A DNA stretch of 64,000 nt from Psilocybe cubensis (GCA_017499595.2 CM039004.1:1984001-2048000), one strand, 5' to 3'. Shown: positions 37,284-64,000, counted from the first letter of the stretch. The notes: generated from the sequence alone by a model not told the origin. Translations and numbers: made by a program.

Positions 37284-43437
<6,154 letters not shown>

Positions 43438-44051
43438 ATAAAAATATTTATATATAGTGTGGTTTCTATTAGAATAAATACCTATTCTAATACCTATTAT
43501 ATATACTGCATAGAGCATTCCACAATTAGGGCAGATTATAGCAAGACTATCTAATAAAATGGGTAGTCTTGCATATTGGATTAGCAAACTGACCAATATA
43601 CCCTTACAATGGTGGTCTGGCCATTAAACATTTTATGTTACATTTATATTTGTATTACTTGTTACATTGAAGAGTTTTATATTATATTTCTTTCAATGAT
43701 ATGGCACCATCTTAGTTTGTATCTTATTTTTTTACCTACTCTTAGTATAAACTATTCTTTTTTATTAGATAGCTACCAAAATACAATACAGTTTGTATCT
43801 ATTGTATTGAGACTATTCTTTTTCATTAGATTATGGTTCCTAGAAAATAGTGAATTAATACATATTTATTTTACTTAACCAACCAGTGTAATGACTAGAT
43901 TTATACATTTGCCATATGTTAGTAAAATGTCTTGTTTGGAGTGATAGTACAATTCCCAAGCAATAGATTGTGATGTTTGTGTTTGTCACTAGGAGGGAAG
44001 CAAAGCTATTATCACTCTTTACAGAATAGCACAAGCTTTGAAATAGATGTG

Positions 44052-45345
44052 ATGCATATCGGCAAAAGTGACAGGATCCCCAAATTCCTTGAAAGGTCAT
44101 TTGGAGGTGTCCAAATGCCCCAAGGCCCAAATGGCCTTTTAGATTGACTAACAAGAGACTCGGAATCTTGAAATACTATAAATCATTTAATAAACCCAAT
44201 ATTTTAGCTAGATTTAAATTTAATCAAATCATTTAGGTAAAATTTGGGAGACGCAAAAACATTTGGATAACATTTAAGTTGCATTTGAGAGTTCTAAAAA
44301 CATTTAGGGTTCACTCAATGTTGACACAATAATATGTTTTGCATATTTCTACTCCTGGCAGCCACTTCATGTATTCACACAACAGGATGTAACAATTCAA
44401 AGAAAGATTTTATTGAAAAAAATTTAAACCAACAGAGGCTACATAGAAAACGGATTCAAGTTCATACAATCTGGGAAAAAGTGACGGAGTCACGTGATTG
44501 AATTGATGCACTATAAGGTTGATGAGTCATGGTCAAATAAATGTAAATATATGCGCATATACATACCAATGAGGTGACCAGAATAGTTGTCTGGTTAATA
44601 GATACACTCTAGAAAAGGAAGTAATCAAGGCAGAGGGAGAAAAGCCATGAAAAGGTATAAAACAGTCAGTTAGGCTTGTGTGATGAAAAAGAGAGCATGT
44701 CTTTCACCTTTTCGGCTCTATTAACAGTTTTGAGGTGCAGAAAGAGGCATAGCAGTGGTAATTGAAACCAGAGAGCGCCGTCGTCAAAGTGGTGGACATG
44801 AGAGGGTAGAAAGAAAGCAACTTGGGTGTGTCTCAGATTTTTATGCTCAAAACAGATGTTCAGTCTCCAATTTAATTTATCAGTGGAGACAGGCTTCTCT
44901 AATTTATATTTCTTAAAGTTAAATTTCCCATGTACATGTAATTCTTATGACAATGGTGTCGTATTGGAAACAACCTGCTAGCGTCATAGGTATTACATGT
45001 GTTCAGTAAAATTTCTTGTACCTAAATTATTTTGAACATATTTGAAGCCCTTTAATCATCTGTATCAACAAAAAGTTGAATTTAATGTTTTATTCTTTGT
45101 TTTTATTTTTAATCAATTGTTCCCTGCAAATCATTAAGAGATAAATGTAAGTACATGGAATATTTTGTACTGAACTTTGAGGTGTATAAATGTTTGTGGA
45201 GCATTCAAATGCTCTCCAAATGTTTTGTGCACCTCTAAATTTTAGTGAAATGTTTTTGTGTAACTTAATATGTCACGCAAAACATTGACCTACTTAAAAA
45301 GGCACAAAAGGCATTTGGATATCTGGTCACTTTTGCTGATGTGGA
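44052..45345. mobile_element. Decayed non-autonomous TIR DNA element
   Basis: ATGCATATCGGCAAAAGTGACAGGATCCCCAAATTCCTT (~44052) resembles the reverse complement of ~45305-45345; a second inverted block pairs ~44225-44285 with ~45200-45257. No ORF inside. Confidence 0.55.
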
Positions 45346-45546
45346 TGAGTAGTATACACAGTACTGCATACCAGTTATAACTATAAAAAGGCTATTTCAC
45401 CTCTAATTCACAAATACAAGTAAGAGTGCTTGTTAAAGTTGTGTGCACACACTTATTTTTCAAGTCTCTTGGTATAAACAGTCTTGTTCAGAGATGAGAT
45501 TCTCCCTTAATAGGTATGGGGGTGGACCCTCAAAGTCTCAATAATC

Positions 45547-45632
45547 AAACTGCAACCCTCTTGGTTACAGGTGCCCTCTTGGCTAATAAATAATTGAAAC
45601 TGCAACCCTCTTGGTCACAGGTGCCCTCTTGG
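45547..45632 (+). repeat. Direct repeat, two 36-bp copies, 50-bp period
   Basis: AAACTGCAACCCTCTTGGT(T/C)ACAGGTGCCCTCTTGG at 45547 and 45597. Confidence 0.85.
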
Positions 45633-46399
45633 ATATAACATAAATAGAGTGGGAGCTCTTTCCTTGGAAAAGAACTTGCAGACCCACGCCGGTAGCCTCT
45701 TGCCCTGATCACTTCCTGGGCGCTAACTCAGAACGTGTAGAAAATGACTTGCAATACAAGTGCTCTTAAGCACTAGAGTACTTTATATCCAAGTCCAGGT
45801 CAACTACACTTGTGTTTTCCTTCACTTTGACAATAAGCTTGTCTGCAAAACAACTTATCACACTATTTGAATGTGGGGGTTCAGAATAAATTAGTACTCT
45901 TGATTTTTGGATATGAAATTGCTTGTCCTTAGACTACAACTTGTCCAATATAGGCCATTTTTTTTATTTTTTATTTTGTATTATAGCCTCTGAGGGGTGG
46001 ACCCCTCCCTTGGCTTGGTACGTACTACTATCTACAACACTCCGATGGCGTTTTTGCTGTCCTTGACCTCCTTTTGTGCTACAGAGGGCCCTCACATCCC
46101 CCTTCAAAGCCCAGCCCTTCCTTGGACTGTTTGCGAGAGCGTCTCAAGCTTTCTATAGACTCTTTCCTCAGCCTCTTTTCTTCTTACAGTGACTCTGTCA
46201 TTGGTGTTTGTATCCTCTTATCTCCTTTCCTCTCCCTCCTCCTTATCTAGTCCCCTCTGTAGTATGTCCTCTTTGTATGGTCGTAGCCTCTTTGTTTTCG
46301 CAATAAATTTTATTAGTGCTTTTACATGACTGGTTTTTGTGGTGAGGTCCATTAAGTTTAGGCTTTGCTCGCCTATCTTGTCCCACATTTCTTGTCGCT

Positions 46400-49300
46400 G
46401 TCTTTAGTATTCCCTGCATTTGAGTAGGAAGCGTTTGACAGTTTTGACCACTCTTTGGCCGTCGCATCTTTCGAAGCATTGTGGGCAGTGCTTGTCCTGT
46501 TCCATGTTTATCCTGCTGAGATGGTTGTTCAGTGGGATGTGTCCCGAGCGCAGCTGGATTATAACGCTGGCTTGGGTTCTATTGAGTGTTTTCAGCACTT
46601 TTTGATACCTGTTGAATGGGAATTCGGTGTCAATGTGTTGGAATTTGGCCTTTCTCTTGGAGTTATCCCATCAATCTCACCATATTGTCATTAGTTCAGC
46701 ATGGTAGACTTGTTTCTCGGCTGATGCACTGTATTTCATTTTATTTTGCAGCAATTCTGGGAGTTCTTCAACTGGCAATGATTTGCCTTCCGCCGCCCAC
46801 TTAGCTTCCTCGTCAGCTTTCTCGTTTCCTAGTACATCAGAGTGCCTGGAGATCCAATGTAGGGTAATTTTCCCCTATAGGTCACAATATTCTTTATCAA
46901 TGTTCAACATGAAGTGCTGACCGGACTTAGCTTTAGGCCATTCCAGGTTTTTCAGTAGCAATTGATTATTGCTGAATACGTCTATCGTACTTCTGCGTGA
47001 TGGTTTCTCATTCCGTATCAGTTTGGAGGCTAGTAGGCCTCCTACTGCTTCGGCTTTGTACGTGTTGTGCTCGTCTTTTGTACACATGTATAGGCGGAGA
47101 ACCTTGCCATGTTGGTCTCTACAATTTTTGAAGAGCACTGCCGCTATCATACCCGAATCCTGATTGGAGATGAGATGTTCATTTTGGATCTACACACGAT
47201 GCCCTCAACCCAAGCAGTCATTCTTTCCATAAGTCATCCACTCATCTTATCTTATCAACACTCATCATATGGGAGCCACGTTATTCCGGATCATGTTATT
47301 CTGTCAGATCATCAAGGCTATGCAACGGATTAGTCAACCATCAAACTGCACAGCTTTTTACACTGCCTTGCACAGCCAGACTATCAACTCTATTTTTATC
47401 AACTCAATGGTCTTACTCAGCGTCAGACTGCAGATTACTCATTCCAACTTATTTTTGGTTTGTCTTACTCATCCTTTTGTGTTTATTTATATCTTTTCTA
47501 TTGTCTGTTGCACTTTTATTGTCTTTGTCTTACCAATCTTCTATGCTTTCTGACTCATCCTTGCTTCTTTTATCTAATCTGTATTACCATTCACCTTTGT
47601 CGTACACTTCTTTCATACTCATCCTATTCATTTCTTATCTGTCATCGTGTCGATATTGACATGTCTTATTGTTCTTGCTTATTGTTACACTTGCGTAGCC
47701 TCATTCTTGACACTTTGTACAGTATATGACTTGGTTTTCAGTAGCTCAGATTGGTATTTTGTTCACGTAGCTTTTAGTATAAAAGCTGTAGTAGAATTAC
47801 ACAAAATGATAGGAAAGTTACACCCAGTCCCCACTTTCTTCAAAGCAAGTCAATTTTCATCCAAGTCAAGTCAATTTCAAGTCAATCCATATCAATTCAT
47901 TTCAATTCCAAGTTCAAGTTTAAGCCAAGCCCAAACCCAAGTCCAATTCAGTCATCAGTTCCACCCTCCGTCGAGACCAAGTTTACTTCCATTCATTCGA
48001 AGTCATCTCGCTTTCCATTGATAGAGGATTTCTTCCAAGACCAGTCCTCCTTCTCATCCAACGCCTCTTCTTCTCAGCATTAAACATCCCATGTCTATCC
48101 AGACATCCAGTACTCCCTACTTCCTCTCCCCCATCCAATCCGTCACTGCTCCTACTCTTTCTACACCTTCCAACCATTGCCGTTAGGAGTGTATTCAAGA
48201 CATCCTTTCCCTCCGTCAACTCATCTGGAGCTATTTCATTCGAGACAGACTTAGTCTTTCATCCTCAATTCAGTCAATACTCCCACAACGTATAGCTTCA
48301 TTCCAAGCTTCAGAAAGATTGTCAATTTAAGGACACTTTCATCTTCACCATTCCCAAGATTCAGCCCTTCAATGACGTTCCAACTTCTAGTCATCTTCTT
48401 ATTTCCCCTCAAAACATTCCCCACTCACTTCAGACAACCCCTCTAAGATTCACATTTATTGATTTTTTATCCGCATTCTACGCACCTTCTTCACGCTTTC
48501 CATATACACCCGCCATCCAATTTTACGGTTCCATCACATTTTTGGAAGGCTTATTTACCATCGTACCCAGACGACCTGGTTATCCTCTTCTTACCATTTT
48601 GCTTTTGTTACCTTTCACAATCCACACCATCCTAATCTACTTAAATCCTAGGCAGCGTCCTCCCTTAAGAAACTTAGGAGAAGGTTTTGTCCTATTCAAT
48701 CTGGACCACTCTTTCCCTGGGGTTTGTGTTTGTTGGATTACATATAGTTTATAACCAATCACAAACTTCGATCTTCACCGCGCCTCCAGTTCTATTATCG
48801 TGGCTGGACCCGTTGGTATACACTCTGATGTCGGCGGTGCTTTCTCTTTTGTATTTTATTGATTCCTCTTGCGTTTTGGCTATGATGATCTTGAAGGGTG
48901 GGTGGTAGTTTGAAGTGTTTGGCATAGGTGAGATTGTTTCTATTGTGCTTGGTTTGAGGTCAAATACACGTATCAGATTGTTTATTGGGGTTTTATGTTG
49001 TTTTTCAGGGCAGGTCTTGGCTCTCAATATTGCCTTGTAGAGAGGATGCGTGTCGGGTAGTGTTGATATACATACCATAGCCCTGCGACAGGCCTTGAGT
49101 AGTGCCAATTTGAGTGGGAGGACGCCCGCATGGGCATCTAATAGTTCGGTGGGTGTCAATCTCATCGCTCCAGTGATTGACAGGGTGGCCTTCCGCTGTA
49201 TTGTGGACATTCTTCTGAGTGCCGTTACCAATCCAATATTGTTTTTGTATCCAATTGGCTTTGTTGGGGGGTGTACCATACGTCAATGCCATATGTTAAC

Positions 49301-52038: not shown

Positions 52039-53454
52039 CTAGGATTTGTCCGTGGGGATGAAAGGGAGCTTGTTCTCTGGGGTACGTTCATCCTTCTTGG
52101 TGATCTTCTTAATAAAGACTAGGCAGGTTCTGTCGTAGCTGGGGTGGTCGTTGGCATTGCAGGATACGTAGTGCATCTTCGTCTTTTTGCAATTGGGTAT
52201 GCAGTGTCTGTCTTTCTCTCCGCAATGGCCGCAAATGTTATGCTTGGAGATGCATTCCTTGGCAAAGTGATTGTATCCTTGACATTTGAGGCATCTAATT
52301 GGGTCAGCCCTATATTTCTGCACTCTCACCCTTTTATTTGCGATGTACATGCCTATTGCAATCAGCCTATTGGCCTCACTAGTGTTGTTTATTGTGAGTA
52401 TTATGTAGGCACTCTTCTGACCTACCGCTCAATGTGAGATTTTCTTTGCCCATCTCATTGAGATGATGGTGCCTTCATCTACCCTGTTTGCTTCTTCAAC
52501 CTCCCGCAGAAATTCCGCATCCTCCGGTTCTGCTGACAGAGGAACTCTCATTGCAATTAGCTTGTATGTTCTCTTCTTGGTCGTAACATCCTTGCCAATG
52601 TGTTTGCACAAGTTCCTTTGATTGTTGTCGGTTTGCATCCAGGCTGCCCCAAAATCCGAGTCAAATTCGATTAACAGGCTGCCATTCTGCTGCTTGATGG
52701 CAGAACAGATCCTGACTGCGCCTTCTGGCTCAAGAGTCTGCAGAATTTTGTTTATTGCGTTTTTCGCTTTTCTGTCGCCCATGGAGCCAATTTTTGATTC
52801 TTTGTTTATGCCTTTGAGCATTGTCTGTCATGCACGGATCCCGTATTGGGCCAGCATTCTTGGATTTGTTGCGACATTCGATTGTACAAGTATGTGGTTT
52901 ACTATAAATAGGCCTTTCAATAAGGCTTGACTGTACAATCCGCCGTTCAGTGTTTATTGTGGTACTGCCTGCGCTGCCGATTTGATTAGATTGGCAGTGG
53001 CTTTATTTATCTCATCCAGTTTCTGATCGACCTTGTCCTGGGCGTGTTGAACCAGGGATTTGATCTTGTTCATAAAAGTCGCCAACTCCTCGCCGAAGCC
53101 GTCGTGGTATGTTTGCATCGCCATTGGTAGTTCTATCTCTTCAAGCATGAAGGCAAGCCCCCTCATTGCCTGGATCACTGTTGGTGGCATCTTAGCCAAC
53201 ATCTGCACTATCTGGAATAGGCAGGTGGCGGCCTGGTGGTGCGTCAAGCCCTGCCCTGCTAGCACCAAGAGTTGGTGTTCCTCTAGGTAGGAGCGGCCTC
53301 CTTTCGTGTTCTGCACTTGCTGCAGTTCTTTGTTGATTACCATTCCCTTGCTTCTTGTTGTTCGGTCTGCCATAAATGAGTCATTTTGACCCAGGGTGGG
53401 TGGATTTCCTATGGGTGTCTTCCTGGCACGTGCTGTGCTAGTGTTGACATTCAT
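52039..53454 (-). pseudogene. LINE ORF1 (gag-like), broken by stops and frameshifts
   Basis: CLKCQGYNHFAKEC, CGHCGEKDRH..C and CNANDHPSYDRTC knuckles, spread over three ORF fragments. Confidence 0.8.
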
Positions 53455-54472
53455 TGACAGTTTTAATGGGTGTGGGTGTTTTTGTGTGTGAGTGTGGGAT
53501 TTGGGTACTTAAGGTACATGTTTTGTGTGTATATTACTCTACTCAAAAGCTTTTACTCCCTTCAGGTTGTTCCTTTACGCTCTATGTGCATGGAAAACTT
53601 GCTGGAGGTGGTGGTTGCGGATTAAGGAGCGGTAATGTAGGCCATTGCTTATAGCATAGCATTTACAAAGCTTTTTTTATCTTGCTAGAGCGATACAATT
53701 CAAGTCTGTTTTTTCATTCTATGAAGCCCTCTTTTATAGAACTCTATTAGGATATAGCATTTTCAATATAGAAAATTATTTATTCTATAAAGAGACTACT
53801 AAAATTCTATAAACCTATTGTCTTCAAGCTCTGCACGGTGGCACTATCCAGGATATAACTAATTTGCCACTGCTTGTATTCAAATGTGTGGTGTCCAAAA
53901 AGATGACACATGGCTACAGTCACCAGACGCATGGTTAGATAATTTGTGATGGAATATGTAATGTTTATTTAAAAAATGTATTGACATTTTATTGCATAAT
54001 TAGCAGCTAATTATGCAAGAATTATGTTGTCAGAGATTAAAAAAGATGATACACATTTATCCATAGATTATGTAGACATTATGTATTTATAAAAAGATTA
54101 CATATCTTTTAAATATCATTTGTATTGACTAATATAACAATTATGCAAAATCTATACAAATATAAAATGTAATAAAGCATGGCATACCTTTGTTGTGGCA
54201 TTTTTGATGTTTGTTATTAGAGTTCTAAATTGAAATTTCCAAATTGGCGTATAAAGCTGTTGGCCAAGTTTGGCAGACTATTTTCCGCCTGTGGAGTTAA
54301 TGTCACAAAAATTTCTGCAAGAGGACATTATTTTCTAGCCTTGGCACATTTATTTTCTTGGTGTTAGGGTAGAAAAAGAGAGCATGACATGCAGTGGCAT
54401 ACATGTTGTGGATATATTGTGGTGGACTGCGGTGTTGTTGGGGTTGAGAACACAATATGCATGATACTGCGT

Positions 54473-54531
54473 TGAAGATCGAAGTTTGTGATTGGTTATA
54501 AACTATATGTAATCCAACAAACACAAACCCC
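54473..54531 (-). repeat. Second copy of the terminal 59 bp of the solo-LTR-like element
   Basis: Exact reverse complement of 48719-48777; identity stops abruptly at 54531. Confidence 0.88.
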
Positions 54532-54974
54532 CACATAAGACAGTTTATTTATAACGTACATTACCTAAGATTTAATAATAAGGATATTACGTGAGACACG
54601 GTGGATTTACTTCCGCTACCTAATTAGGAGATTAGCGTGATGTACGTGTGATTTAGCCTGGCAAATCATAGCGTACATGACGTGCCATTTAGCGCTAAAT
54701 GGAGCCGCCGGGTGGCCTGCGGGATCCGCGCGTCTACCTACACGGAAGAAACATGGGCCGGAAATGAGCCGGACGGGTCCATTTGCATCCCGTGTATTGC
54801 AAGCAGACAGATCCGCTTGACCCGTGTTGTGCTGTCAGACGGACCCATTCATCCATCTGCTTCTGTATTCCGACAAATATCCGCCTTGAATCGTACATTG
54901 GATGACCGTTAATATATGTAATAAGGTGTATAGATTATACTGGCAGCAAATTCCTTTCCACATACCCTGATAGT

Positions 54975-56254
54975 ATGGATTATGCCTTTGAGCTAACCCA
55001 ATCCCTCTCAAACTACATGAAGGCAAAGATAGCTAGTCGTCTTTGGCATGCAGAACTGCCTAATCAAATCCGGGAAAACTTCAGTGCTGAGACCATGTTT
55101 GAGTGCAATCTAGCTGTGGAGGTGATTTTGCAGGCATTTGAAAATCAAGGTATGCAATCAATAAGCTTTGAAAATTGAGATTAAATAATGTGTGAATGGC
55201 AGAATATACGACGTGGGATGCAGAAGAATATTTGACCCATCTCAGCGCACGTTGCACGGGTCAGAATTCTGCCGTTGAGGCTTGCCTGAAAGACCAGTTT
55301 CCTCCGGTGCATTCCACGTTACAGTACCAAACCCTGCCTGGAACTGTAATCGATAGTGCAGGCAACATATTGGTGTGGTACCTGCCAGGTATTTTGTCAG
55401 AGACAAGGGTGGTGAGTTTTAGAAACGGACCGATTAATTCCTATATTATGCGTTCTAAAGAGTAACAGGAGAGTGTGTGGAATTCATTACGGGATATTGA
55501 AACAATGATTCACAAGGCGGCACCTTTGGCCACAAGCTGGAGGGTCAATGACAGTTACTTTCGACATGAGCCAGGTTGGCTTCAACCTGGAAATCTTAAC
55601 TTTTCCCCGGCATGGTTTCAGCAAGGCCATGAGGTGAGAAACTTGTTTGCTAAGTATTATACTGCCTCATATTTTCCTCAGACGTCCAACCCGCTTGAGG
55701 TCTCCTTGGACTTGTGTAATCCTATTGGACAGGAGTTTATACGAGACATGATGACATCTTCGGCTTTGCTGGGAGCCATCTTGAGCATTATACACCCCGA
55801 GCAGTACCGGGCGGGAATAAAATTTCTTCAACGGCTTGCTGCGGAACCGGAGCTCGTCCATAAGGCCGAAATATTGAAGCAAATTCTCACAATATGGAGT
55901 TCGCCCTTTGGAGTCATGACCGCCATCAGCAACCGAGATACATCGTACCATCGGGATAATGGGTCATGCTACTCATGGTACGATTTTTTGATGCCACTTG
56001 GGAAGGGTGAACACGGACGGCTTGAGCTTCCTGGCCTTGGACTTCGGTACAAGTATGATCCCATGACCCTTGTTGCAATTACCGGCAGGTTGCTTCAACA
56101 CGGCGCGGTGTGCAAGGGAGATAGGGCAGTCATAGTCTATTACATGCGTAGGACTGTATTTAAAGAGCTGGGAGTCCAAGAGGCGGGATGGTCTACTACG
56201 TACGATCTTTTTGCAAATTTACCGGCCACCAATACTTTTGATTTTGAAATATGA
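54975..56254 (+). CDS. TET/JBP-family Fe(II)/2-oxoglutarate dioxygenase, 4 exons, ~373 aa
   Basis: Exons 54975-55149, 55203-55411, 55469-55633 and 55682-56254 splice in frame. Motifs ILVWYLPG, NFSPAWFQQGH, NRDTSYHRD (HxD), LELPGLG..Y.P, LLQHGA (H), GDRAVIVYYMR (R). Confidence 0.87.
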
Positions 56255-56349
56255 TCAGTTTTTGACTTGGAAGTTGGGTTTGGGGAAGATTTTTTTATAT
56301 TTCCAAAACAAAACGGTACAAAAGCTACAGAACAACCAGAATTCTCTGT

Positions 56350-56620
56350 CCCAGGGTGTTTCCGACGCGCCCGCGCTGAGCTCTTCCAAGGTTACCGGAA
56401 TCATCGGACTCCGCCATTGTATTACCGGCGGAAAAGGCATCATCCGCCTCCTCTTTGATGTCCTGTGCGAGAGGTGGGCAACTAAGATTCCTCATCCCAG
56501 GGTGTTTCCGACACGTCCTCGCTAAGCTCTTCCGAGTTACCGGAAGCATCTGACTCCTCCGTCGTATCACCGGCGGAAGACTCCTCATCCGCCTCCTCTT
56601 CAAAGTCCTGTGCAAGATGC
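56350..56620. repeat. Diverged direct repeat (~125-bp copies, ~146-bp period)
   Basis: CCCAGGGTGTTTCCGAC..CGCT.AGCTCTTCC...TTACCGGAA..CCGGCGGAA..CATCCGCCTCCTCTT..GTCCTGTGC occurs twice. Confidence 0.8.
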
Positions 56621-58106
56621 TCTAAAAACGTAGCTGGTGTAGAGGATTCAGTGGTATCGGACGTACTATCAATATCATCCTCTTCTCCCGGGAAAACAGG
56701 TCTTGACCTTGCGTTAAAAAGGAAGGCATTGCTGGTGTGTGCATTTGACGGAGGGCTGACGGAACTGGGAGTAGGCAGAGTATCTGTTGGGAGATGAATA
56801 TTTGCAGTGTTGGAGGGTGGCGAATGATACCAGAGTGGATGAAAAGGTAGTTCCTTGACGGCAATAAAAGAATAAAAAATGTTGTTGATGTAAAATGAAG
56901 CGACTTTGAGCTTTGAGACCTCGAAGGACCGGGCTTGAGCCGTTATAGCGCCCCAACTGTCAGGAGAAGGGTGAACGGGATGCTGAAATTTGTATTTGGC
57001 TGAAAGCCCCTTGCCGTTAGAGAACGGGTGCTCCTTAGAGTCAATCCACATCTTCTCCAATACAGAATATCTGCCCAAGGCGGCCGAAGAAGTAGTCACT
57101 GCTTTATGGGCATTCTTCATTTTGTCCGCCACATTCCGGCGCAGGTGAGCCAACTCCCTCATTACGCCCGTTAGGATAGGCTGACCGCAGCGGGGACAGT
57201 AGGGCGGTCTGTGGTCAGAAATTGCAATTGGGGATGTTTCATCCCGCGTGTTTGCAACACGGGTCGGCGGATTGGGTTTCCCCGTGGGCGGTGAAAACGC
57301 GGAGCCGTGCTTTCCCGTCAACGCGGATCCGTGCTTCCCCGAGGTGGGGACGGATGTCCGTTCAGCCGCCTTTCCCTTGCCCTTGGGATTGTTTTCCTGA
57401 TTTCTTGGAGGCCCAGAGGTAGATGAACTTGCGCCCTCCTTAGCTTCTTTCCTCTGATTATTTAGCCGGAGTACCTCTTGTTGGTATTCAGGCAGAACCA
57501 CCTGGTGGGAAGGACGCAAATCAGATATAATCCACAGCAATAAAAAAACATACCTTGTTCCAAAATTCTCTTGCTTGCGATTCAACGGTAACAAAGGCAA
57601 CTTGCCACTCATCGCCTTCAGCAAATCCGTCCCTCCACCAATATCCCCAGCTCTTGGTCTGATTTAAAATTTCATCATCTTCCCATGCTGACCAGCTTTG
57701 ATTTAGAGATTCAAATAAAACAGCTCGATGGTGGGGAGTTCGGTTCAAAACGGCATGTACGCTCTGATTGAGAATTTCTGATATAAAAAATGGAATATCG
57801 ACTTGGAATCCATTGACATAGCAGTATCCGAGTACTCTCAGCAGTATAGCCTGACGACCAGTTCTCAATACAAGATATAATCGTTCAAAATTACTGTCTT
57901 ACCACCTCCAGGTCGAGCAAATACATCCATTTTTGGCAACGCACGGAGGAAACAGAGTCTCCGTTTGCAATGAACAAACGGTATCCGGCACGGATCCGTG
58001 CACCACAAATATGGACATGAACTTTGGCCAGAGCACGTCGCTCATCATAGGTAAGGAGATGATGTTCGTCCTCGACAGGAGGTTTAAAAAGCCGCGGTAA
58101 GTGCAT
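56482..58106 (-). CDS. Uncharacterised transposon cargo protein (Trp-rich N-terminus, CPRC motif, acidic tail)
   Basis: Three successive minus-strand ORFs separated by GT-AG-like introns, starting MHLPRLF just downstream of the transposase stop. Confidence 0.55.
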
Positions 58107-58150
58107 GAATTCAACAAGATGGGATACAACAAGAATGTTCAAAGAACTGG

Positions 58151-61100
58151 TTAATCTGTAATTATAAATCTCCACACGGACGGATACTCCGGGTTAATTT
58201 GACGGAAGACCTTATCTGCGGCCCGCCCCAGATCATTCCACATGGCAATCTGCTTTTGAGCATTTGCCCTGTGACCAACTAACCTGTCAGGAACAAAATC
58301 ATGCCGTGCACGCCATGTCTTTGCCATATACACATAAAATCTGACAGTCCATTCCATTTCCTTTTTTGTCAAGGCCAGCTCCTCTTGCCATCTATTTCTC
58401 TGAGCTCGCGCGCGGAGCCAGTTTAGCCTGAAGACTAAGAAGCCCTTGAGAAAAAAATTAGAAATACAAATAGCAGTACTCACACTCATTAACGTATAAT
58501 TGATTATCATTGTCCAGGCCCTGACGGGATCTCCAAATCCAACTTAGACGGTCCGAGCTTCCTCCGCGAATGTTCGGATCCGACACGGCATTACTATGCT
58601 TGCAATCATGGACTTGCAGAATGGGATATTGTTTCCAAATATTATCCTCATCTCGCACGCCAGCAGATAAATAGATCATCTTCTGACGGTTTGTGTTGTA
58701 GAGTCGCCGGTGCAATTTCCAGGAAGCATTCAAAAGCTTGACGCCATCCCAAGCACGAGTCCCCATATAGACGGAGTCGGCGGTCCGAACCTGATATTTA
58801 TACTGCCAAGAAAGCTAGATCAAGGCTGACCGGACCGCTTCCAGACAGTCCTCTGCGTGGCCATGTCTTATTTGAAGTTCAAGTTTGCGAAGCCCTTTTA
58901 AAATGAGGTTTGTTCCCGCGTCAAGGCCGTCAAAGAAATCTTGTTTGACGGCGGAGGGAAACGGAAGCGGCTGTCGTTCCGGATCCGCGCAGGTAATGTT
59001 GACATTTCCAAGATCAGGATCGTCGTTGTCACTGACTTCATAGTCAAGTATGGGAGCGATGTCCCCTTGAATATCCTCCAAGACATCTTCGCCCATGAAG
59101 GTCATAGCGGATCGACAGAAGGCTTCAACGCGGGTCCGCATGGAGCGACGTTTATTGACCAAGTCAAGTTTCTGCGCGGTGGAAGGATGCTTTCCGAGCT
59201 TTCTGACATGGTTCCTGAGCTCCAATCTAAAAGCATGTTAAATTCTGTAGGATGCAATTGAAATAATCGTACTGCGCTTGCTCCAGTTTTAAGCCGGATG
59301 ATATCCATGCTGCCTTTCCAGTAGCACCATTAGATGTAAGTTCCATATTTGAAAGATGCAATTCAATTTCTTGGCGTCCAGCAGCCGTTTTCACTTTGCT
59401 TGCCATTACCTTGCCAACAGCGTCGGCCACACCTTGTTCTCGGTCCGCTTCTGCTTTTGAAATTTCATCTTCCCAAGTGTTGATGAGCCCGGAATCTTGT
59501 TGATCCATGATACCCCTATAAAATCGGTCTGTGATTCCGGACTGTTCCCGTGCCCGTTTGAACTTTGCAGCAATTGTTGCAGCCATATTAATGGTCTTCT
59601 TCCAGTTGGAATCCCCCATGTGGTCGTCCAAAACCTCTGCTCGATGGGCAGTGGTAGCGGAACGTGTACTCCGGGATGTGTCATTTAACACGGACCACAA
59701 CGGCTCCAGGATTTCTCCGTCAATGATTCCCACACCCGGGACATAGGTGGATGCGTAGTTGTAAAGACATTCCGTCTTGTGCCCGTGGACGTAAAATAAA
59801 CCAATTGCAAAAATCATTTTAACAGAAGGTGGCCAATGCATTTTTGTGGACTCTGAGAGATGCCTTGCCAAGTTAACGCAATATTGACAGTTTATATTGT
59901 AGATTTCCAAATGTTTTGTGATTCCCTGTGTGTTGGTAGTTTCCCTGGCCTGAGTCAAAGACCAATCCATGTGCATCTGCTTTTCGCCTTTGTCAAAATC
60001 GACAACACTGGATGGACAGAAGCATCCGTGCCTAGCACAAGCGTGTGCCCCAATTCCACGTACTCTCTTACCCGGGCTGACTCTGTTTTCAGCTTTCTGG
60101 GCGTGGTAGTTATGACATGTTTGTTCCTGATATTTTTTACATGGAGGATAAGCCATCCGCCGTGGAAGATTTTTTTGACACGGAAGGGAAGCATCCGCCG
60201 TGGAAGATTGTGACACGGAACGTAAGCATCCGCCGTGAAAGATAAATCATGGTAGATAACGCACCCGTTTATAACGTGGAGCAAGAGAAATTGCTTCCTT
60301 GATGTGCTCCTTGTATGGGCCCGGAGCAGTCATGTATCCTTCTCCAACGCTCAACCAAACATTGTCTCCCTCGTTTTTCTGATTGAGGTGATCTGCTTTG
60401 AAATTACCATCTGCAACATAACTACGTATGTACAGATTGCTATTTGCTGTTAATTGCAGTCACCCTTGAAGAATAACTAAAACTTGCCTGTCAGCATCAT
60501 CAATCCAGGTATCAGGTAGGTTTATTCCAGGCTGTGGACAGGCGGGGCAGAATAAGGCCAACTTCCCTCTCCTATCTTCAACTTTGGGATGATCCTCGGT
60601 CCGCGTCATTTGTGGTGCAGGCGGACCATCTAATCCGCCGTGTCCCAGAGACGGGTCCGTTGACATTCCGACTTCTTGAGACGGACTATCAGATCCGCCG
60701 TCAATTGGATCAGATACATTAATACCCATCCTCTCTGGTGATGAATCATGGCAATGATGATAGTAAGGGACCACCGCTTCTCTTGTATGCCCTTCTCCGT
60801 ATTGTCGTCTCAGGACAAGGTCCCTGTATTCTCTACTAAGCCTTCTCAATTCACGATAGCGGTTCAGCACCTTTTTTGGAAACGCTGGCGAAGTCAGTCT
60901 TCGCAACTTTTGGTAATACTGATAAGCCGACGTTTTGCACTCGAGGTTGTCCATCCGAAAGTCCTCAAGGACCTCAACTGTGAACACAGTTTGAACGTTT
61001 TCAAAGCTGGCTGCAAATAATCCCATCTCCAGATACTGTAAATCGATAGACGGAAGGCGGACGGACCGGCATGTGCATGTTCGCACGGGCAGATAATGGA

Positions 61101-62071
61101 CTCCGGAGATGTGCACAATTGCCTTGAAAGGAATTCCATTGTTGTCTGCTGCCTTTGGACGAGGTTGGTCCAGATAGGTTGTATCGACTTCCTCGAATAG
61201 ATCATCATCTTCATCGTCTCCATCGTCCAGCTCAACCAAATGGGGTACCTCCGGGTCCGCCAGAAGCTGAGCCGTAAAGGATTCTTGGTCATTGCTCGCA
61301 GGAAGCGGATCCAGGTCCAATCCGTGTTCATCCTCAAAGATGGGCGAATTGTTTCCGCCGTGCCCATGACTCCCGGATGAATTGTTTCCGCCGTCGCATC
61401 CTAGATGGCTCGGATCCGTGGGATAAGGACACCGCTTCCCATTATGACCCAAATACAACTTGACACCCACTTCCCACAGAGCTCCCGGACGGAAATATAG
61501 ACCCGTCCACTTCTCAACGCGGTGGAAAGGTGTAAATTGATGGTTTCTTCGCAGGCATTCAGAACACAAAATTCTAGAGCCAAAGCATTGGCAACATCTC
61601 CACACTCCAGACATTCCTTGACATTGCTGACACCGTCCATTCAGATCCGGATCCGGGGCTTCTCCTCCAATCATTGTTCCAAGATACACCTCTCGTTTCG
61701 GGAGCCATTCTCTCAGGTAATCATTTTGAGACTGGATAGGTAAAGTCATCCTGATCATTCTACTGAAAACATGTTAAACATACCTTTCCTCCCGTTCTGT
61801 CGTCATCTAGCTGTCTCAGGTTATCAAGTACCTGCTGATCAGTTAGATCTCCCGGATAATGAGGTATTTCTTCTTCCAGAATGTTGTGTTCATGGTTTTG
61901 GAAAGAGTAAGTCGGTGTTTGAGGGAGGTTTGTTGATGATGATTCTGCAGGAAGTTTGTGGATCCTCGGCCGCCCTCTCTTTCGTTTCTTGGCCCCACTA
62001 GACCAGGAGGCCTCCCGAACATTGGGAAACTCCTCATCCGATCCCCTATCAGGTACTTTCTTGAAGCCCAT
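58151..62071 (-). pseudogene. CxC2-domain KDZ transposase, inactivated
   Basis: CxC2-type cluster (CQQC..WRCCQCFG..CSEC..H..PFHRVEKWTG..LGHNG..CP); CPACPQPGINLP, DGNFKADH, CARHG..VDFDKGE, YNINCQY, DGEILEPLWS, WLRARAQ.NRWQEE; in-frame TAG at 58815-58817. Confidence 0.88.
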
Positions 62072-62952
62072 GGATGTTGGAAACAAAGAGTCTGACAGCC
62101 TGTGAGCGCAGATCTAAATGTAGTATAACATGTTTATTTCTGTAGATAAATTTCCCTCAATTATGCCGTTGTAAAGAGGGGGAAAATAGCTTTTATATGA
62201 CCTATTTTGCAGCATATTTGAATGAGTGAGTGAAATGCTATGAACAAAACTTGATTCAGAGATGCATAAAATGGACGTGATCCCATCATAAATGTACAAT
62301 ATGATGCAGAATGACCCTTTCAGAACCACACTTTGGAGTGTTTTTGAAATATCTTTTCACTGGCTGGCCCCTCATTCCTCCGGCATATATCATATTAAAG
62401 ATAATCTCAACAGCTACACAGAATGACATTTTTTGTAGAAGATGAGTCCTCATATTTATGGAGATATTCTCAATATACTAGAAAATGTGTCAAAATGAGC
62501 TCACTGGGATCATTATATTTTTTGAAAAAAATTATGCATTTGAATACCTCTCATGGTCTCTGAGATGACTGCCGTTTTGGGTTTCACAAGTTTTGGGTGA
62601 GAAGACGTGAATTTGAATTTTGTGTTTCTGTATCTTTACAGCCATCTAACAAGAATTTAAAACCTTGTAAAATTATCTTTATATAAAGCGCTAAATGTTT
62701 ACAAAATTTCATGTTTATTGATTGAGTGCAGAGGGAACTATTGCAAAATCATGAGGTCAATGTATGTGACAGCGACCAGCATGCTTTGATCATCGTGGCC
62801 GACGATGAAGCGGGATTACCTGATTGGGAAAAATATGACATCACATCATTCATTTAGTATGATCGGAAGCTTATTTTATCTCCGTATGACGTGAGATTTG
62901 ACTAGATCACACAGATACTCATCGATAAGCTACTTGTTACATCGCTGCAATT

Positions 62953-64000
62953 ATGCCCACCAATGCATCCCCCGACGCGGATCCGCTTCCTTCCACCGCA
63001 AATGCCACAACCCACAACGGACCCAGAAGCGGACAGACGGCGGAGGGTGACTTTCCGCCGGAAGAATCAAATATATGGACCACAAAGGAAATGCGCGTGT
63101 TGAAAAAGCATGTACAGCCCTACAAAGATACATCAAAGTCATCCAAAGCAGACTACATACAGAACACTGTCATACCTGAGCTGCAAGCTACATGGGATCA
63201 CAGATACTCTAGACGTGCTAGGAAGGAAGATAAGCAACTACACAAAGAATAGAAGGTGAAGAAGCATGTGAGCTCGTTGTTTCTTTGAAAATTTTGTTAC
63301 ACACATAAACCATCACAATAGCGAATATTTAATTGGTTTAGAAACCATGCGTCAAATCGAATTGGTGTAAAATTGGAAGGATTGAACTCCCGTATAACCT
63401 TTCAGACGGTATTCCGTGAGGAGAAGTCGGCAGAGATTGACTCCGAGGTTGCGCTTCTATCAGGGAATGCTGCTCGTGGAAGTAAAGATTGGATGAAGTT
63501 TTATCAACAAGAACGTAAGCAGGTTGAGGCCAGATTGACTCAGGAGGAGCGGGACAGGTTCATGGAGATCCTTGAGGAATGGAATAAGAAAGGTGTTTCA
63601 AAATCAATGAAGGCAAAGTGAGTCGGTGGAACTTGTTTCCGCCGTCAATCTGACATCTGCAGGACTGCTGCCAGGCAAGGCAGAAAAATACTTCGACAAA
63701 TGGAGAAACTTAAGTGGCAGAGAATGGGTATGAGGTCCATTACCTTTGAGGGGCATTATGATATTGAGGGTAAAATTGAATACTCAATGTAAGTGTTAAA
63801 CACGGCATGAACAAGTTCCGCCGTGAATGCTTACGGCGGAAACTTTATCCGCCGTAGGGTGTTTACGGCGGATAAAGTTTCCGCCGTAAGCATTCACGGC
63901 GGAATAATTTGGCCCGTATTAATGTTGACTGATGGGCATTGAAGGACCCAGACAAGCAATCTAGCACTCGACGATGTCAGAATTCCTTCCTTTGGGCAAC
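62953..64000 (+). pseudogene. Transposon-borne helical/HMG-like DNA-binding protein (3'-truncated, premature stop)
   Basis: Spliced exons with WTTKE, WFRNH and WMKFYQQ..LTQEERDRF..EEWN; TAG at 63250-63252 (probably former TGG) within the exon. The HMG call is tentative. Confidence 0.5.
63816..63904. repeat. Perfect inverted repeat, 41-bp arms and 7-nt loop, intronic
   Basis: TTCCGCCGTGAATGCTTACGGCGGAAACTTTATCCGCCGTA-GGGTGTT-exact reverse complement. Confidence 0.95.

Follow-up and report, generated by a model that had tools for sequence, protein, structure and literature searches.

The linkage of TET genes to transposons, together with the hypothesis that such genes counteract silencing, has already been published (Kojima 2025, PMC12730594, citing Iyer et al. 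2014). As described there, Kyakuja elements have 5′-CA..TG-3′ termini and a 7-bp target-site duplication, and lack terminal inverted repeats. According to the discussion of the same paper, the TET genes of transposons are mostly undisrupted. Two of the elements, Kyakuja-1_LB and Kyakuja-2_LB of Laccaria bicolor, show the same linkage of a CxC2 KDZ transposase with a CcTet-like TET/JBP gene that we describe here.

We analysed a stretch of 64,000 nucleotides of Psilocybe cubensis (GCA_017499595.2 CM039004.1:1984001-2048000), referred to below as the window, with positions counted from its first letter. Positions 54532-64000 correspond to the left ~9.5 kb of a KDZ TET-carrying DNA transposon, whose copy is truncated by the window edge and whose right end lies outside. 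The family of this element joins the TET-carrying KDZ/Kyakuja transposons already published, and the decayed copy at this locus is one of its ~20. Since such transposons are already in print, the finding as given changes very little. The locus is nevertheless useful as a clean worked example for claims of retention: an open TET frame beside a dead transposase is no evidence of retention before gene length and decay per codon have been weighed.

Boundaries and copy number of the element

The left boundary had been placed at 54532 in an initial annotation made from the sequence alone, and the reads bear this position out precisely: depth rises abruptly at it, and 631 reads of run X14 end there with flanks unlike one another (agreement 0.35), indicating a true element end. 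The depth of X14 rises from ~26-40x in the flank (53001-54101) to ~460-650x from 54836 on, and the word depth of a second run, X1, goes from 17 to 281-321 across the element start. Read depth of X14 is double in the bin 54469-54835. The first ~318 bp of the element (to 54849) are common to a second repeat family; at 54849, 368 X14 reads run on into the other consensus (agreement 0.94). The left terminus and the region upstream of the TET gene (54532..54974, plus strand) begin with 5′-CA and have a CpG observed/expected ratio of 1.17. From the ratios of read depth and word depth, the family was estimated at ~15-20 copies with at least 90% likeness. In P. cubensis, the locus tags of six triads of third gene, KDZ and TET are consecutive, and those of further triads nearly so.

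Just outside the element lies a 63-nt fragment of a different repeat (54469..54531), with an inverted copy at 48719-48781 (98.4% over 63 nt, blastn); the pair, the only long inverted one in the region, brackets a LINE (RVT_1, 2.2e-14; Exo_endo_phos_2, 1.6e-8). We rejected this pair as terminal inverted repeats of the transposon, as it is part of the flank: read ends are loose at 54469/54473 and 1136 reads diverge after 54531. No terminal inverted repeats of the element were found in the window, beyond which its right end lies. We assign the element to a putative Kyakuja type of the KDZ superfamily on the grounds of its host order, its CcTet-like TET and its CA terminus.

Genes carried by the copy

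The TET/JBP dioxygenase gene lies on the plus strand at 54975..56254 (exons 54975-55149, 55203-55411, 55469-55633 and 55682-56254). Its introns of 53, 57 and 48 nt are GT..AG throughout, and the exons splice in frame into an open frame of 373 aa, identical over 373/373 residues (100%) to the public P. cubensis protein JR316_0008193 (P0069). Pfam Tet_JBP (PF12851) matched the exon 3-4 ORF (E 6.3e-20, 71.5 bits) and the full protein P0069 (65.1 bits), both above the curated cut-off of 34.9. The best solved relative is CcTet of Coprinopsis cinerea (7vpn, E 1.1e-25; also PDB 7w5p and 8jkk), a 5mC/6mA dioxygenase, to which it can be aligned at the HRD motif, at the distal His and at both Arg. The alignment covers CcTet chain residues 200-418, and the P. 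cubensis protein, a putative dioxygenase, is the shorter (373 aa vs the 430-aa CcTet chain). It has all residues of the iron-binding HxD...H triad and the 2OG-binding Arg (H273, D275, H323, R331 and R339). Counting homologues that have a residue in the column, the same residue occurs in 139/140 at H273, 133/139 at D275, 129/133 at H323 and 103/129 at R339. The four-exon, in-frame TET/JBP gene of ~373 aa with HxD (HRD), distal His and Arg that had been proposed was thus borne out by splicing, Pfam and alignment to CcTet. Of the 17 members of its P. cubensis cluster, all 15 that are listed keep the HRD, distal His and Arg motif, and the full length of 373 aa is reached by at least 11 other paralogues.

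Three missense changes are private to the TET of this copy: R86C (55283-55285), P271S (55943-55945) and E328K (56114-56116). P271S sits two residues before the iron-binding His; in place of this S, CcTet has P at the aligned position, as do 14/14 other listed paralogues of P. cubensis. More widely, 102/140 homologues have P at position 271 and 2/140 have S, while I, L, V, D or E is seen in others. In papers on CcTet, two residues are said to matter for 6mA.

Convergent to the TET gene, the core of a CxC2-KDZ transposase occupies the minus strand at 58151..62071 (exons 62071-61784, 61731-60464, 60421-60265, 60126-59273, 59226-58484 and 58434-58154), with its stop at 58151-58153, as used by the 1195-aa paralogue models. 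Exons were derived from tblastn against the paralogue P0009 and a splice search, and core and motif domains from Pfam, which matched CxC2 (2.2e-21) and KDZ (2e-34) in ORFs of the window, as well as in P0009 (KDZ, 7.9e-41; CxC2, 2.7e-20). The association of KDZ transposons with TET/JBP genes that is established for mushroom-forming fungi holds at this locus, all three domains being matched in the HMM search, and is in print (Kojima 2025). A single true premature stop, Q993* (58815..58817, CAG to TAG, non-CpG), interrupts the frame at a position that is Q in 14/14 transposase paralogues covering the site; at 58817, 479/479 X14 reads have the family base. Two in-frame stops (60460-60462 and 60247-60249) were rejected as premature stops, as the gene models of the paralogues place them in introns. 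Two motif substitutions private to this copy lie within 59791..59898: D648N (codon 59896-59898, YDINCQ to YNINCQ), at a TCG CpG where D is found in 46/47 homologues, and H683Y (codon 59791-59793, FHVHGH to FYVHGH), where H is found in 49/50. Its near-invariance suggests that D648 is a catalytic residue. With Q993*, D648N and H683Y, the transposase of this copy is very probably dead, and the premature stop and motif substitutions that had been noted in it are confirmed. A 138-nt intron of the transposase (60264-60127) contains 35-nt tandem repeats (60135..60242, repeat family D3), whose number differs among family members, read joints skipping 35-73 nt.

Downstream, on the same strand, lies an ORF (56482..57850; exons 57850-57554 and 57501-56485, stop 56482-56484) that is either a fourth gene or a C-terminal module of the transposase. 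It matches residues 1351-1691 of P0009 at 98.5%, has no known domain in Pfam and carries two private changes, D1559N and G1598S (P0009 numbering). The initial annotation spoke of four genes. Of the 15 listed paralogue models, seven join this ORF to the transposase, and four end at the stop equivalent to 58151-58153, as does the Flammula homologue P0012. As the 1195-aa models and the Flammula homologue end before it, the 393-aa ORF need not be merely the transposase C-terminus, and a separate gene is possible.

The third gene is divergent from the transposase (62953..64000, plus strand), with codons 1-264 in the window and paralogues of 668 aa. It is broken by W100* (63250-63252, non-CpG; W in 15/15 listed paralogues), so that the stop previously seen in it stands, and it has a further private change, G169E. 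In the public model JR316_0008196 (P0245, 631 aa), which shows the private E169, a longer intron avoids the stop. The label ‘HMG-like’, by contrast, found no support in Pfam, PDB or Atlas: at E up to 1, Pfam gave nothing but a chance match to DUF4962 (0.037), PDB gave no relative but one chance match (0.016), and the neighbours in two Atlas searches are unnamed basidiomycete proteins. A very remote likeness to the HMG-box fold is still conceivable. An intron of the gene contains a perfect 41-nt inverted repeat with a 7-nt loop, CCGCCGT-rich (63816..63904, I1 in the repeat search), and reads of other copies jump over 63 nt at this place.

Decay of the TET gene and of its neighbours

The initial annotation held that the TET gene is kept intact while the transposase is dead, and named decay of both at one rate as the outcome contrary to this reading. 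We compared the genes at the amino-acid level, via the public protein models of other copies. Private amino-acid changes per codon are 3/373 in TET (0.80%), 13/1617 in KDZ (0.80%) and 2/264 in the third gene (0.76%); with these small counts, Fisher's test of TET against KDZ gives an odds ratio of 1.00 (p = 1). A change was judged private against 11 TET, 6-14 KDZ or 15 third-gene paralogues, the paralogue comparisons drawing on 15 listed members each of clusters of 17 (TET), 39 (KDZ) and 22 (third gene) members. At this level the TET gene decays at the same rate as the transposase. At a nonsense hazard equal to that of the other two genes, its probability of escaping a stop codon is 0.67; its placeable changes are three nonsynonymous and one synonymous, 67% nonsynonymous being expected for C-to-T-type changes. 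Nor is TET more strongly conserved than the KDZ core among the paralogues: over 13 TET-KDZ pairs, identity to this copy is 93.9-98.7% for TET and 96.5-98.8% for KDZ, and variable columns amount to 9.7% in TET vs 3.8% in the KDZ core. Per 1000 cells, TET has 3.29 singleton amino-acid states, the KDZ core 1.96, the KDZ C-terminal part 3.30 and the third gene 3.59. Retention of the TET gene in this copy is therefore unsupported.

The element had also been described as richer in CpG than the neighbouring LINE, through protection or simply youth. The difference itself is real (CpG observed/expected of 0.84 in the element and 0.60 in the LINE, with 0.89 in window 1-48718), and youth explains it, the copy having 47 differences from the collapsed X1 family contigs over ~7,800 aligned bases. 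Protection does not fit: the copy is not protected, because 16/20 listed C-to-T-type differences (up to 58991, with 40 of 114 rows of differences listed) are at CpG. In X14, 87 places in the element differ after manual removal of 19 flank rows; 61 of them have T/A in the window vs C/G in the family, and 16 are in the reverse direction. The four indels relative to the family are all intronic or intergenic.

Because the per-codon rate is the same in all genes, an intact TET beside a dead transposase comes down to target size and chance; that the open frame reflects a small gene and luck, not selective retention, is the reading that we favour with good confidence. The alternative, in which TET was selectively retained after death of the transposase, for local or trans counter-silencing or on the way to host domestication, could appeal to the open frame with its catalytic residues beside two genes with stops, to the mostly undisrupted TET genes of other transposons (Kojima 2025, discussion) and to the CpG content of the element compared with the LINE. 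We consider it quite unlikely in view of the equal missense rate in TET and in the dead genes, the substitution of a Pro near the iron-binding His that the listed paralogues and most homologues keep, the greater variability of TET than of the KDZ core, and the CpG-to-TpG decay of the copy; the other full-length paralogues, moreover, make this TET redundant. The TET gene is under selection at the level of the family, since all 15 listed TET paralogues keep the motifs and transposon TET genes are mostly undisrupted. A weak local benefit from the TET of this copy is conceivable. At the other extreme, the whole copy could be functionally dead, with P271S, with or without R86C and E328K, impairing the enzyme. 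The preference for Pro at 271, CcTet included, points that way; the position is, however, not invariant, and the metal and 2OG ligands are untouched, so that we hold this to be rather improbable. The TET of this copy may instead be active, if redundant beside its paralogues.

Alternatively, the real copy could be intact, and the private changes, stops included, could stem from faulty assembly or base calling where methylated sites lie in a collapsed repeat. Most changes are at CpG, and the window allele at the transposase stop is absent from both runs (0/479 X14 reads at 58817; family base in the X1 contig). X14, however, comes from a different strain (19 fixed differences in ~1.5 kb of flank) that may lack this copy, and contigs lose rare variants by construction. 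At other private sites (54754, 55283), 8-14% of X14 reads do carry the window allele. Neither the stop at 58817 nor W100* is at CpG, and none of the indels is coding. Such an artefact is thus very unlikely.

We propose that the locus represents a recent insertion of a multi-copy Kyakuja-type transposon, now decaying, with a cargo of a TET/JBP dioxygenase, a CxC2-KDZ transposase (possibly with a separate ORF) and a third gene. By analogy with the family and the literature, the transposase of intact copies would cut and paste the element, while their TET, a close CcTet relative, would oxidise 5-methylcytosine and perhaps 6-methyladenine; this activity could loosen methylation-based silencing of the family in trans. 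The changes gained by the present copy are mainly of the C-to-T type; most are at CpG, with a preference for TpCpG, and their rate per codon is equal in all genes. By chance, D648N, H683Y and Q993* destroyed the large transposase and W100* the third gene, leaving the small TET gene with three missense changes and zero stops. Uniform decay of a copy whose TET was spared by size and chance is, overall, the explanation that we judge probably correct.

TpCpG-biased mutation and comparison with known systems

The CpG changes are not spread evenly over contexts. In this copy, 9/16 CpG events are at TCG vs 2.6 expected (p = 2.8e-4). Among the paralogues, C-to-T or G-to-A changes make up 61 of the 68 rare substitutions that could be resolved; at TCG, 26/88 sites were hit, and at the remaining CpG 22/305 (odds ratio 5.4, p = 2.4e-7). 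In this one repeat family the spectrum is therefore RIP-like, with a directional C-to-T excess and a preference for TpCpG per available site. The element consensus is itself TCG-depleted (TCG observed/expected of 0.51 in the element, 1.09 in window 1-43000), whereas the old LINE is depleted evenly across all four NCG contexts. Tentatively, P. cubensis could have a TpCpG-targeting RIP-like process that actively erodes the TET-carrying family, the depleted consensus pointing to a long contest between a genome defence that deaminates or methylates cytosine and a transposon-borne TET that fails to prevent the mutations; we regard this as doubtful for the time being. The family offers a natural test of whether transposon-borne TETs protect their carriers from methylation-linked mutation, and here they do not. 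This side result may matter more than the TET/transposase finding.

A full-text search for Psilocybe cubensis with transposon and TET found no literature, and Psilocybe has 0 occurrences in the main text of Kojima 2025 (PMC12730594), whose supplementary Table S1 might list a Psilocybe family. Like the Kyakuja elements of Agaricomycotina, the P. cubensis family is multi-copy in an Agaricales genome, and its left terminus at 54532 has the 5′-CA of Kyakuja. Among the homologues are Laccaria bicolor proteins with 39-41% identity. The P. cubensis family adds the third, 668-aa gene and perhaps the fourth ORF, neither being seen for Kyakuja in the passages of Kojima 2025 (PMC12730594) consulted.

For the mutation spectrum, the closest described system is in Pucciniomycotina, where TpCpG hypermutation of repeats was reported, with no clear signal in three Agaricomycotina (as described by Horns et al. 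2012, PMC3318451). By the account of Hane et al. 2014 (PMC4014442), CpG bias would be expected in an Agaricomycete, TpCpG bias not. The family described here has the same strong C-to-T excess as those repeats, and the same preference for TpCpG over other CpG contexts; it differs in that the host belongs to the Agaricales and that one repeat family was examined. If the TpCpG-biased spectrum is genome-wide, it would extend the RIP-like signature to Agaricales.

Gene content of the element

When stop-to-stop ORFs of the 54.5-64 kb interval were compared with Pfam, the plus strand yielded Tet_JBP (E 6.3e-20) and the minus strand CxC2 (2.2e-21) and KDZ (2e-34); further ORFs of this interval matched no Pfam family. 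The TET gene model of the initial annotation proved correct: three GT..AG introns (53, 57 and 48 nt) separate its four exons (54975-55149, 55203-55411, 55469-55633 and 55682-56254, plus strand), which encode 373 aa in total. The spliced product is identical at 373/373 residues to the public Psilocybe cubensis protein JR316_0008193 (P0069), so the window is either this locus or one identical to it. Among solved structures, the closest is Coprinopsis cinerea CcTet (7vpn, E 1.1e-25), with which the HRD, distal His and Arg residues align. The HxD, distal His and Arg previously claimed are all present in this copy. When it was aligned with 149 homologues retrieved by HMMER from the whole library, H273 was conserved in 139/140, D275 in 133/139, H323 in 129/133, R331 in 115/131 and R339 in 103/129, and this copy has all five residues. 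In the raw-read run X14, 27 reads connect 54874 directly with 55869 and omit the 994 nt between them; most of the first three TET exons is thus missing from at least one family member in the X14 strain.

The full-length transposase paralogue P0009 (JR316_0009328, 1691 aa) matches positions 62071-56485 of the minus strand with ~98% identity. A splice search guided by this protein placed introns at 61783-61732, 60463-60422, 60264-60127, 59272-59227 and 58483-58435. Three in-frame stops occur in the transposase frame. Two, at 60460-60462 and 60247-60249, lie inside introns and are harmless; the real one is Q993* (58815-58817), where 14/14 paralogues carry Q. The KDZ domain also carries two substitutions private to this copy, both at near-invariant positions: D648N falls in the YDxxCQ motif, where 46/47 aligned homologues have D, and H683Y in FHxxxH, where H is present in 49/50. 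These data bear out the premature stop and motif substitutions reported earlier. We infer that D648 is probably a catalytic residue. With Q993*, D648N and H683Y together, it is very unlikely that this copy provides an active transposase.

The four-gene count depends on the 57.9-56.5 kb ORF, in which no Pfam domain was found. In 7/15 listed paralogue models (1588-1707 aa) it is joined to the transposase, the connection running by way of a poorly conserved exon and a 41-nt intron. Four shorter models among the same 15 (three with 1195 aa, one with 1174 aa) terminate at ...PEYPSVWRFIITD, which is the window's own reading as far as the stop at 58151-58153. A Flammula alnicola homologue terminates at the same place. 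Since these short models and this homologue stop before the ORF, we slightly favour a separate fourth ORF, as predicted from sequence. Between 56333 and 56617, a ~140-nt degenerate direct duplication (79-84% identity) takes in both the end of the coding part of the minus-strand ORF, on its 3′ side, and the spacer leading to the TET stop codon.

The divergent gene, from 62953 onward, falls in a P. cubensis cluster with 22 members, most of them 668 aa long; the window covers codons 1-264 of the gene. The stop noted in this gene was recovered as W100* (63250-63252), W being present in 15/15 paralogues. The public model at this locus, P0245 (JR316_0008196, 631 aa), has the private E169 of this copy; within 62953-63382 it bypasses W100* with a longer intron, removing 37 residues. 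The longer intron therefore hides the stop, and a pseudogene is annotated as a 631-aa protein. Its description as 'HMG-like' found no support: no Pfam match was obtained at E up to 1 except one chance match, there was no PDB relative, and the Atlas gave only unnamed basidiomycete clusters.

Decay of TET and transposase

The initial annotation proposed that TET is kept while the transposase is dead. To compare genes, we counted private changes, defined as amino-acid states of this copy that no listed paralogue shares (15 members listed per cluster). TET carries three (R86C, P271S, E328K) in 373 codons, both KDZ parts 13 in 1617 codons (with artefacts of the alignment excluded, both at the edges of HSPs and within 58120-57853) and the third gene two in 264 codons. 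Rates, based on small counts, are 0.80%, 0.80% and 0.76%, respectively (TET versus KDZ, Fisher odds ratio 1.00, p = 1). One of the TET changes, P271S, lies two residues N-terminal of the iron-binding His, at a position where 14/14 other listed paralogues have P; among homologues, P occurs there in 102/140 and S in 2/140. The changes placed in the TET gene are three nonsynonymous and one synonymous (56233), for an expectation of 67% nonsynonymous for C-to-T-type changes; synonymous-site data for this copy reach only to 58991.

The family as a whole gave a similar picture. Over 13 TET-KDZ pairs, identity to this copy is 93.9-98.7% for TET and 96.5-98.8% for KDZ, and for every 1000 alignment cells there are 3.29 singleton amino-acid states in TET, 1.96 in the KDZ core, 3.30 in the KDZ C-terminal part and 3.59 in the third gene. 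Equal private rates, family identities and singleton rates all argue that TET is no better conserved than the transposase: at the protein level it decays like the transposase. Given the nonsense hazard of the other two genes, the probability that TET escapes a stop is 0.67. Thus, the observation of an intact TET next to a dead transposase stands, whereas the interpretation built on it is supported only in part, retention of TET finding no support. Chance and the different sizes of the genes, in a young copy that decays uniformly, best account for the contrast.

Boundaries, copy number and repeats

The left boundary of the element at 54532 is exact: 631 reads end there with flanks unlike each other, which identifies it as a true element end. 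The element starts 5′-CA and its right end is outside the window. Raw-read depth in X14 is about 26-40x in the flank versus about 460-650x in the element, and word depth in contigs of the second run, X1, is 17 versus 281-321. From both depths, the family comprises some 15-20 copies at ≥90% likeness. P. cubensis locus tags include six consecutive third gene-KDZ-TET triads and several near-consecutive ones. In the flank (53001-54468), X14, a run labelled as the same species, and the window show 19 fixed differences over about 1.5 kb of single-copy sequence, balanced in direction; between-strain divergence is high there.

Read depth over 54532-54849, the initial ~318 bp of the element, is about double that of the remainder, and at 54849, 368 reads exit into a different, well-agreeing consensus. 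This terminus is common to a second repeat family or to deletion derivatives. The 63 nt preceding the element (54469-54531) belong to another repeat, with an inverted counterpart at 48719-48781 (98.4% identity); the neighbour bracketed by this pair is a LINE (RVT_1 2.2e-14, endonuclease domain 1.6e-8). The right arm, 54469-54531, is itself in a high-copy repeat, as 1136 reads continue differently after 54531.

Inside the element, a perfect 41-nt inverted repeat is located at 63816-63904, in an intron of the third gene, and units related to it and rich in CCGCCGT occur at 63624-63645, 61340-61394 and 60135-60242. The inverted repeat and these scattered or tandem units have TTTCCGCCGT in common, are intronic in the third gene and the transposase, and differ in copy number among family members. 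They could be protein-binding sites of the element.

CpG loss and relation to published systems

The element is indeed richer in CpG than the neighbouring LINE, with an observed/expected ratio of 0.84 against 0.60; window 1-48718 gives 0.89. Protection or simply youth had been offered as reasons. This copy is young, with 47 differences from collapsed X1 family contigs over about 7,800 aligned bases. Compared with X14, it has T or A where the family has C or G at 61/87 differing element places (after hand subtraction of the 19 balanced flank rows) and the reverse at 16; among the differences listed, 20/21 element rows are of C-to-T type, 16/20 at CpG. Over 54532-58991, the change rate at CpG is 15-fold above that at other C or G. 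Being directional and mostly at CpG, these differences imply that the copy has been losing CpGs. Youth, not protection, therefore explains its CpG content.

Nine of the 16 CpG events in this copy are at TpCpG, against 2.6 expected from site availability (p = 2.8e-4). As an independent test, we used paralogue proteins (P0001, P0009, P0061-P0091 and P0240-P0253), in which 75 rare isolated substitutions (present in ≤2 paralogues) were found. One base change in the window's codon suffices to account for 68/75, and 61 of these 68 resolvable cases are C-to-T or G-to-A, with one the reverse. Per nonsynonymous site, TCG is mutated in 26/88 versus 22/305 for other CpG (odds ratio 5.4, p = 2.4e-7). TCG observed/expected is 0.51 in the element, other NCG contexts being at 0.76-1.31; it is 1.09, without depletion, in window 1-43000, and the old LINE is depleted evenly across NCG. 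The adjoining 43000-48718 region is AT-rich (GC down to 0.29) with the window's lowest CpG content; at 44001-48000, CpG observed/expected is 0.42 (TCG 0.31 versus 0.46-0.49 for other NCG).

The same TpCpG preference characterizes the RIP-like signature of Pucciniomycotina, where Horns et al. 2012 (PMC3318451) describe TpCpG hypermutation, with no clear signal in three Agaricomycotina. For an Agaricomycete, a CpG bias is expected and a TpCpG bias is not, according to Hane et al. 2014 (PMC4014442). A possible RIP-like TpCpG bias in P. cubensis, seen in the one transposon family examined, is a lead and not a result.

A full-text literature search for Psilocybe cubensis, transposon and TET returned no paper, and Psilocybe has 0 mentions in the main text of Kojima 2025 (PMC12730594). 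That text describes TET-carrying Kyakuja transposons across Agaricomycotina, groups their TETs with CcTet, proposes escape from methylation-based silencing as their role, and credits Iyer et al. 2014 and Chavez et al. 2014 with the original linkage and oxidised-mC maps. It gives these elements CA..TG termini and 7-bp duplications, without inverted repeats; at the left end, which this comparison covers, our element also has the CA terminus. The TET-KDZ linkage and the counter-silencing idea are thus already published, and the addition here is the locus itself, a Psilocybe cubensis example of this known group.
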